IMG/VR virus record: IMGVR_UViG_2703719354_000007
From: a virus
Taxonomy: Duplodnaviria > Heunggongvirae > Uroviricota > Caudoviricetes
Length of the DNA: 5,854 nt
Direction: 5' to 3' (one strand)
Below, one piece after another: positions 3,939 to 3,985 of this stretch. How positions within the stretch are numbered: the first letter of the stretch is position 1; every line of letters begins with the position of its first letter. Under the pieces are notes generated by a model, which was not told where the DNA came from, did not search any database, and saw nothing but the letters and a program-made list of their open reading frames with translations. A program made the position numbers and the translations under genes.

Positions 3939-3956
3939 TCACCTTTCTCCGGGCGT

Positions 3957-3977
3957 AAAAAAACCGCCTCAGCGGTT
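3957..3977 (-). terminator. Terminator-like hairpin plus U-tract between the G-T stop and the tape measure start (possible partial terminator or RNA-stability element)
   Basis: Plus 3962..3977 is aaccgc-ctca-gcggtt, a perfect 6-bp stem with a 4-nt loop. On the minus-strand transcript the stem is followed directly by a U-run (plus-strand A-run 3957..3963; two of these are in the stem). It lies in the 47-nt gap between the T stop (3988..3986) and the H Shine-Dalgarno. The orientation fits only the minus-strand transcript. Confidence 0.35.
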
Positions 3978-3985
3978 CTCATCAT

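Follow-up and report, generated by a model that had tools for sequence, protein, structure and literature searches.

A conserved terminator-like hairpin at the junction of the G-T and tape-measure genes in an Escherichia coli prophage tail module

What does a hairpin followed by a U-tract do between two late genes of a lambdoid prophage, when lambdoid late transcription is carried out by a Q-modified, terminator-resistant polymerase (PMC7547250)? This question is raised by the IMG/VR record IMGVR_UViG_2703719354_000007, a stretch of 5,854 nucleotides (nt) from a member of the Caudoviricetes (hereafter, the window), which is about 96-99.6% identical to long-tailed Shiga toxin (Stx)-converting and other E. 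coli prophages. All of its genes lie on the minus strand, and positions 3939-3985 are exactly the 47-nt gap from the stop codon of the tail gene T to the ATG of the tape-measure gene, with no open reading frame (ORF) inside. An earlier note on this DNA had pointed to a hairpin in this gap and proposed that it could act as a partial terminator or 3′-end stabiliser within the late operon. We found that the hairpin is conserved in position and in base pairing across many genera, very probably as a selected intrinsic-terminator structure, and that its strongest correlate across genomes is the presence of an inserted moron gene upstream.

Anatomy and conservation of the hairpin

On the minus strand, the gap reads AUGAUGAG-AACCGC-UGAG-GCGGUU-UUUUU-ACGCCC-GGAGAAAGG-UGA-AUG, in which the perfect 6-bp stem AACCGC/GCGGUU, the 4-nt loop, the U-tract and their coordinates are all as the earlier note had given them. 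The parts of the element, as read and folded on this strand, are the following.

3977-3972, minus strand: 5′ arm of the stem, AACCGC (read and folded)
3971-3968, minus strand: tetraloop, UGAG (read)
3967-3962, minus strand: 3′ arm of the stem, GCGGUU (read and folded)
3963-3957, minus strand: U-tract of seven U, followed by A3956; its first two U are paired to the two A that open the 5′ arm
3950-3942, minus strand: Shine-Dalgarno region of the tape-measure gene, GGAGAAAGG, outside the hairpin pairing
3980-3953, minus strand: full match (31.8 bits) to a covariance model made from 23 junction terminators, the sole match in the window

Folding of the minus-strand RNA, a check that the earlier note had suggested, gave −7.1 kcal/mol (z −3.2) for the perfect 6-bp stem with its four G-C pairs and 4-nt loop, and −10.4 kcal/mol (z −3.8) when the stem is lengthened to 9 bp by three G-U/A-U pairs (GAG/UUU). 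The entire 66-nt region is not unusually stable (z −1.4), and the ribosome-binding site (RBS) of the tape-measure gene is left unpaired by the hairpin in every predicted fold. A GC-rich stem-loop and a contiguous U run, which define an intrinsic terminator, are both present on the mRNA strand, and no T-run follows the hairpin on the opposite strand. A strict scan for such structures (a perfect stem of 6 bp or more that includes four or more G-C pairs, a loop of 3-8 nt and a T-run after the last G-C pair) returned a single match on both strands of the window, which was the hairpin before the tape-measure gene, compared to 0.004 matches per window in 500 dinucleotide shuffles. Since this definition was drawn up post hoc, after the site had been seen, the comparative data outweigh the statistic. 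A generic terminator scan of the window did not list the hairpin and gave eight loosely terminator-like sites against 4.9 expected; the miss may be due to the extension of the stem by G-T pairs into the T-run, which leaves too few T after it. The earlier description of the site as terminator-like is borne out by its full anatomy, its orientation along with the genes and its conservation.

The junction was surveyed in one genome per bacterial species, scanned with an alignment of tape-measure N-termini, which gave 65 loci (60 distinct) from many genera of the Enterobacterales and one Pseudomonas. In 41 of the 60 loci, a hairpin with a T-run was found within the 50 nt that precede the start of the tape-measure gene. 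Terminator-like matches on the coding strand numbered 71 in 168.6 kb, and 43 of them lay within 50 nt before the tape-measure ATG; the density at this position, 14.3 per kb, is 85 times that in the rest of the sequence (0.17 per kb). Although unrelated by sequence, the stems are always paired (for instance, CCCACC/GGUGGG, CCCUC/GAGGG, CCGGC/GCCGG, CCCAGU/ACUGGG and GCCUCGC/GCGAGG).

Covariation was assessed on a gap-free alignment of 23 variants of the same geometry, in which five of the six pairs change on both sides. As these seeds were picked for forming the hairpin, their 100% pairing is by construction, whereas the diversity of their pair types is not. The covariation score was 0.538, compared to 0.168 ± 0.03 in shuffles (none of 500 reached 0.538) and to 0.15 or less with slid partners. 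No column of the T-run varies in alignments A1 and A4, and the T-run is the part of the element conserved best. The covariance model located the site in the majority of the 63 non-window loci, with 46 plus-strand matches at the junction position (counted from the table). The conserved position, together with compensatory stem changes across many genera, indicates that the structure is kept by selection.

Variation within the lineage of the window could be followed in an IMG/VR scan with the tape-measure N-terminus, which returned only relatives of 96-100% identity and is informative for within-lineage variants only. The stems of close E. coli relatives are AACCGC/GCGGUU, AAUCGC/GCGGUU (with a G-U pair) and ACCUGC/GCAGGU (with one pair gained on both arms), and their loops drift between five forms, UGAG, UGUG, UUUG, UGCG and UUCG (UUAG, too, occurs among relatives). 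All 17 distinct variants of the E. coli type are paired, with at least seven T each. The design of hairpin and T-run is, moreover, common to phages further away, namely E. coli 606R7 and phi467, Klebsiella phi17.2, Serratia OS31 and HK97.

The junction with and without inserted genes

In HK97 (AF069529, as annotated by Juhala et al. 2000), the junction of the G-T gene (gp14) with the tape-measure gene H holds gene 15, which is annotated as 'moron product' and was the original moron. After it, 12 nt short of H, the record lists a 'terminator, putative' (8398-8422). The product gp15 is a prophage-expressed superinfection-exclusion protein (Cumby et al. 2012, as reviewed in PMC3594210), and morons carry a promoter and a terminator of their own and are expressed from repressed prophages (PMC3594210). 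The HK97 hairpin (ACCCGC-UAUCAA-GCGGGU followed by U8) aligns in position with that of the window: both are found at the junction of the G-T chaperone and tape-measure genes, a few nt before the RBS and on the same strand, and both consist of a GC stem of 6-8 bp, a loop of 4-6 nt and a run of U7-8. The two junctions differ in that the window has no moron gene or promoter upstream, a gap of 47 nt instead of 289 nt, a T gene of the lambda-T Pfam type and a weaker stem (−10.8 vs −13 kcal/mol), and nucleotide similarity between HK97 and the window begins right at the ATG of the tape-measure gene. They are linked, however, via intermediates. Serratia phage OS31 has the hairpin of HK97 and no moron, and Enterobacter/Leclercia loci with the T type of the window have a 111-aa Zn-ribbon membrane gene and then AAACCGC-UUCG-GCGGUUU+UUUUACGUCUGGAG, which is clearly the same element as the AACCGC-UGAG-GCGGUU-UUUUUACGCCCGGAG of the window. 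HK022, with a tape measure of 806 aa (1089 aa in HK97) and a gap of 19 nt, is uninformative as a no-moron comparison. The HK97 late operon has further putative terminators, ahead of gp4, gp12, I and J, which are also hairpins with a U-run adjoining the RBS of the next gene, and the window has one before V, too. In the literature, we found no experimental tests of these HK97 late-operon putative terminators and nothing specific on experiments with terminators between chaperone and tape-measure genes.

When the 60 loci are sorted by how far the tape-measure ATG lies from the T stop, two kinds of junction can be told apart.

Empty junctions, 34 loci: gap of 9-37 nt; 16 with a full terminator, 5 with a hairpin and a decayed T-run, 13 with no comparable hairpin
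Occupied junctions, 26 loci: insert of 277-1037 nt, or an ORF other than T before the hairpin, with no T within reach; 25 with a terminator, 1 without

The terminator is, therefore, present in 25 of the 26 occupied junctions and in 16 of the 34 empty ones (Fisher p 4.5e-5, ignoring relatedness). Empty junctions without the hairpin belong to Proteus, Morganella, Xenorhabdus and some Pantoea/Erwinia, and those with an intact terminator span many genera, with the T stop abutting the stem. Many loci of the Enterobacter/Kosakonia type have an HK97-like hairpin right after the T stop and no insert, and the non-E. coli loci with the T type of the window all carry an insert upstream of the homologous hairpin. 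Since OS31 and the Enterobacter/Kosakonia types have the hairpin without an insert, and Enterobacter/Leclercia have it with one, the hairpin belongs to the junction and the upstream region of the tape-measure gene rather than to any one moron. The window itself is an empty slot, with no ORF and no promoter-like site: of the three parts of a moron (promoter, gene and terminator, sensu Juhala et al. 2000), it has the 3′ terminator, and neither an extra gene nor a promoter of its own (crude scan), and hence the element is not a moron.

The cargo in the 26 of 60 loci with an insert (about 280-1040 nt upstream of the tape-measure ATG, loci L093-L157) is diverse. It comprises YebO-like proteins of the HK97 gp15 family (as in L098), a Zn-ribbon membrane protein (in L113-L116 and L127), lipobox-bearing lipoproteins (in L099, L138 and L157), a TPR protein (in L122) and several ORFs without a Pfam match. 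A short motif, AAUAUUAGGAUU(C/U)U, is common to L103, L113 and L138, which have different cargo. It is found where the insert begins on the left, some 20-30 nt past the T stop, and may belong to a moron promoter that these loci have in common or to a recombination joint.

Proposed transcription termination and its alternatives

With some reserve, we favour the reading that the element, its structure included, is a genuine Rho-independent terminator whose main role would be to stop non-antiterminated transcription at a moron slot. The complete anatomy, the invariant T-run and the near-universal presence 3′ of independently expressed cargo argue that selection acts on transcription termination and not simply on the folding of the RNA. 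We infer that the element terminates, on which polymerases it acts and what benefit it brings, along the following lines. As the late operon is read by Q-modified polymerase, the element could stop only polymerase that is not loaded with Q, which would have started at moron promoters or, in the lysogen, at stray sites. The GC stem would fold in the exit channel of the RNA polymerase, and the weak rU:dA hybrid would free the transcript near 3957-3960. In the prophage, the tape-measure gene and the distal tail genes would be kept silent, and whatever cargo occupies the slot would be supplied with a 3′ end. During lytic growth, the Q-modified polymerase would read through, and the folded hairpin would then do no more than lie 6 nt upstream of the tape-measure RBS, where it may secondarily shield processed upstream RNA from 3′ exonucleases. 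A related case is lambda tR′, or the StxS-generating terminator downstream of pR′ in Stx phages, at which unmodified polymerase halts in the lysogen, whereas polymerase passes once Q is made (PMC7547250). Like the window element, this is an intrinsic terminator in a lambdoid phage, with a read-through dependent on Q that is proposed for the window; unlike it, tR′ stands just after the late promoter and is itself the switch, whereas the window element lies deep in the operon, some 10 kb or further downstream, and no promoter is known to feed it in the window prophage.

Several observations weigh against a role in termination. A simple scan gave no sigma-70 promoter-like site upstream of the element within the window, so that no upstream transcription to be stopped is identified in the window prophage. 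The 13 empty junctions without a comparable hairpin and the five with a decayed T-run indicate that the element is dispensable. With −10.3 kcal/mol, the window hairpin is among the weakest of a family that spans −7.7 to −16 kcal/mol, and it is weaker than all seven annotated HK97 terminators, in agreement with the remark of the earlier note that the stem is short and weak, and the predicted termination at this site may, therefore, be inefficient. Finally, RNAalifold found no consensus structure in an unselected MAFFT alignment of all 70 upstream regions, because the arms are out of register and loci without the hairpin were included; the gap-free seed alignment and the covariance model were used in place of this alignment.

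An extension of the termination reading, which we regard as possible and no better than tentative, is that the terminator is older than the cargo and forms a permanent boundary of the tape-measure gene, a safe 'docking slot' that insulates promoter-gene cassettes that have landed there from the tail genes. This would explain how at least eight unrelated cargo families (YebO-like exclusion, Zn-ribbon membrane, lipoproteins, TPR and others) come to have one 3′ terminator. If so, morons at this junction would be two-part acquisitions (promoter and gene) rather than three-part cassettes, and the internal terminators of Q-antiterminated late operons would be the organising principle of moron hot spots.

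The main alternative is the one raised in the earlier note, in which a late-phase leaky terminator and/or a barrier to 3′ exonucleases would let the V-G-T RNA outlast or outnumber the tape-measure and distal tail RNA and would so help to set protein stoichiometry. The element does lie exactly between many-copy and few-copy genes, and a terminator of this kind is present in T7, where T-phi follows the major capsid gene 10 and its partial read-through lowers the downstream RNA. T-phi is, likewise, an internal terminator in a structural gene cluster, and it behaves as had been proposed for the window; however, it acts on T7 RNA polymerase without an antitermination system, whereas in the window operon, the polymerase is expected to be that of the host, modified by Q, and there is no homology between the two terminators. 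The 3′-end stabiliser variant is a live rival: in HK97, a good U-tract is missing from the hairpins that directly follow the major capsid gene and the major tail gene, which would fit stabilisers rather than terminators, the five empty junctions that keep a hairpin despite a decayed T-run suggest some value of the stem alone, and the T frame of about 300 nt is translated by frameshifted ribosomes only, so its RNA would be mostly naked and prone to cleavage. Yet a pure exonuclease barrier needs no U-tract, which is the part of the element conserved best, and the presence of the element tracks inserted genes and nothing stoichiometric. Moreover, Q-modified polymerase ignores intrinsic terminators (PMC7547250), and the comparable hairpin with U6 just upstream of V (5433-5413; in the same place in HK97) would, by the same logic, lower V. 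Taken as a whole, we judge this late-phase role rather unlikely.

The element could also be a neutral relic, left functionless when an ancestral moron and its promoter were deleted. This would agree with the insert found upstream of the homologous hairpin at every non-E. coli locus with the T type of the window, as well as with the T-run decay at some empty junctions and the 13 junctions without a comparable hairpin. It loses weight through the compensatory changes among E. coli relatives with an empty slot, which include a paired insertion (CCGC/GCGG to CCUGC/GCAGG) while the loops drift, and the intact terminators at empty junctions of many genera point to long-term maintenance; a relic is, hence, improbable. 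Still less probable, and to our mind very much so, is another RNA-level task, either in organising the start of tape-measure translation, through a U-rich leader and a hairpin beside the RBS, or as the 3′ end of an Hfq-binding small RNA (sRNA) cut from the T message. The hairpin and U-tract do stay beside the tape-measure RBS whatever lies upstream, and HK97 repeats a cassette of hairpin, U6-8, AUGGG(G/U) and RBS before four late genes, but in none of the predicted folds is the hairpin paired with the RBS. For an sRNA, there is a sub-threshold match to the Rfam model isrK that ends at the U-tract (27.1 bits, E 0.007), and the prophages of enterohaemorrhagic E. coli (EHEC) are rich in Hfq-bound sRNAs (PMC4104026); against it, the score is far below the gathering score of 50, the match is lost in relatives of 92-97% identity, the known multicopy prophage sRNAs map elsewhere and the window scan gave no promoter-like site upstream. 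As for a chance inverted repeat beside a T-run, the shortness of the stem and the eight loose sites of the generic scan (4.9 expected) would allow for it, but the enrichment and covariation over the 60 loci, along with the rarity of strict matches in shuffled windows, refute it and leave it a negligible probability.

The termination reading, thus preferred, concerns a kind of feature that is already known, namely an intrinsic-terminator-type signal as annotated in HK97 and as expected in lambdoid late operons. What is mildly new, from the comparison of junctions, is that a 'moron terminator' appears as a stable boundary element, with or without cargo, at a junction where cargo is frequent. About 40% of the related prophages (26/60) carry diverse envelope-type cargo at the junction marked by the element, which can be used for annotating moron slots in E. 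coli and EHEC prophages. The junction is also proposed as a simple case of how terminators in an antiterminated operon keep tail genes silent while accessory genes are expressed. The value of the element is mainly comparative, and it has little significance in itself.

Genes and other hairpins of the window and its relatives

The tail module of the window was matched in 2437 of 5426 complete E. coli genomes, and its genes are as follows.

5463-5807, minus strand: tail-completion gene (ORF list, Pfam)
4680-5396, minus strand: V, major tail protein (tail tube protein with an Ig domain), ATG at 5396 (Pfam)
4713 (listed ATG) to stop TAG at 4293-4291, minus strand: G, chaperone (Pfam Phage_TAC_1)
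4300-4294, minus strand: slippery heptamer AAAAAAG for the −1 G-T frameshift, directly 5′ of the G stop TAG at 4293-4291
3986-4267, minus strand: T frame, with the stop TGA at 3988-3986 as the end of the G-T frameshift product (Pfam Phage_tail_T)
696-3938, minus strand: tape-measure gene (1080 aa), ATG at 3938-3936 (Pfam HK97-type TLTM/TMP_3)
362-703, minus strand: gene M, minor tail (ORF list)

The genes on both sides of the gap are those that the earlier note had named, as confirmed by Pfam and by the frameshift heptamer. The 3′ end of G reads AGA AAA AAG TAG; as the heptamer abuts the G stop and T is open in the −1 frame, 'G-T stop' is a fair label. From the listed ATG at 4713, the G ORF would overlap V by 34 nt, and its Pfam match starts only at residue 17; for this latter reason, the true start is probably the ATG at 4665, which has the RBS AAGGGGA, and the V-G gap in the window is only about 14 nt. 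A crude consensus scan gave no sigma-70 promoter-like site on either strand of the 5.85-kb window, compared to 3.3 ± 1.7 in shuffles, a possible depletion that would be consistent with a silent late operon.

The gap between the tail-completion gene and V (the U-V gap, 5413-5476) has two tandem sites of a hairpin with a T-run.

5433-5413, minus strand: hairpin CCCGC-CGCGU-GCGGG with U6, 17 nt before the V ATG (5396)
5476-5460, minus strand: hairpin AGGUCACGGUGUGACUU+UUUCUUUUUU, overlapping the stop of the tail-completion gene

The site at 5433-5413 has the same design as the annotated putative terminator at 6692-6719 of HK97. With terminator-like elements in the U-V gap and before the tape-measure gene, the V-G-T block is, therefore, flanked on both sides. 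In HK97, a cassette of a GC hairpin, U5-8 (interrupted before gp4), AUGG(G/A) and then the ATG occurs four times, before gp4, H, I and J, next to a second class of hairpin.

3305-3345, 8394-8430, 13795-13834 and 15103-15139 of AF069529: the four cassettes
5192-5213 (after the major capsid gene) and 7443-7462 (after the major tail gene) of HK97: hairpins without a good U-tract

The hairpins with a U-tract and those without one may do different jobs. In the loci of the Enterobacter/Kosakonia type, a second terminator, (G)AGCGGC-UUCG-GCCGCU(U) with a U-run, is found about 750 nt upstream of the tape-measure ATG, presumably at the junction of the major-tail and chaperone genes, and the window has no counterpart of it.

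At about 405-466 in L120, L123, L129, L135, L142, L143 and L156: second conserved terminator

Candidate sRNAs were compared with the element as well. Membership in isrK (Rfam RF01394) was rejected at 27.1 bits versus a gathering score of 50, and L001, L002 and L008 (92-97% identical) gave no match with E up to 1; the terminal hairpin and U-run of the model resemble the window element, while its upstream 'helices' fall within the T coding sequence of the window. HnrS/EcOnc10-12, a 66-nt sRNA, was rejected by position, as EcOnc10 lies between the terminase/DNase and lysis genes (Sakai coordinates, Tree et al., Table S2). EcOnc22-24 were likewise rejected, as they lie between the tail assembly and host-specificity protein genes (the lambda I/J positions) on the opposite strand. 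The pipeline of Tree et al. left out sites within 100 bp of a coding sequence on the same strand, and absence from their list is, thus, uninformative. EcOnc22 (with its copies EcOnc23 and EcOnc24) is at 2902714-2902774 of Sakai NC_002695, in prophage Sp15 and on the strand opposite to the tail genes, and its junction is the same one where HK97 carries morons 22 and 23.

A further hairpin, GGCAUGGU-GGUU-ACCGUGCC followed by UUUUUGU, is found at 482-501 on the minus (coding) strand, within the coding sequence of gene M. At −13 kcal/mol (z −3.2), it is stronger than the hairpin before the tape-measure gene.

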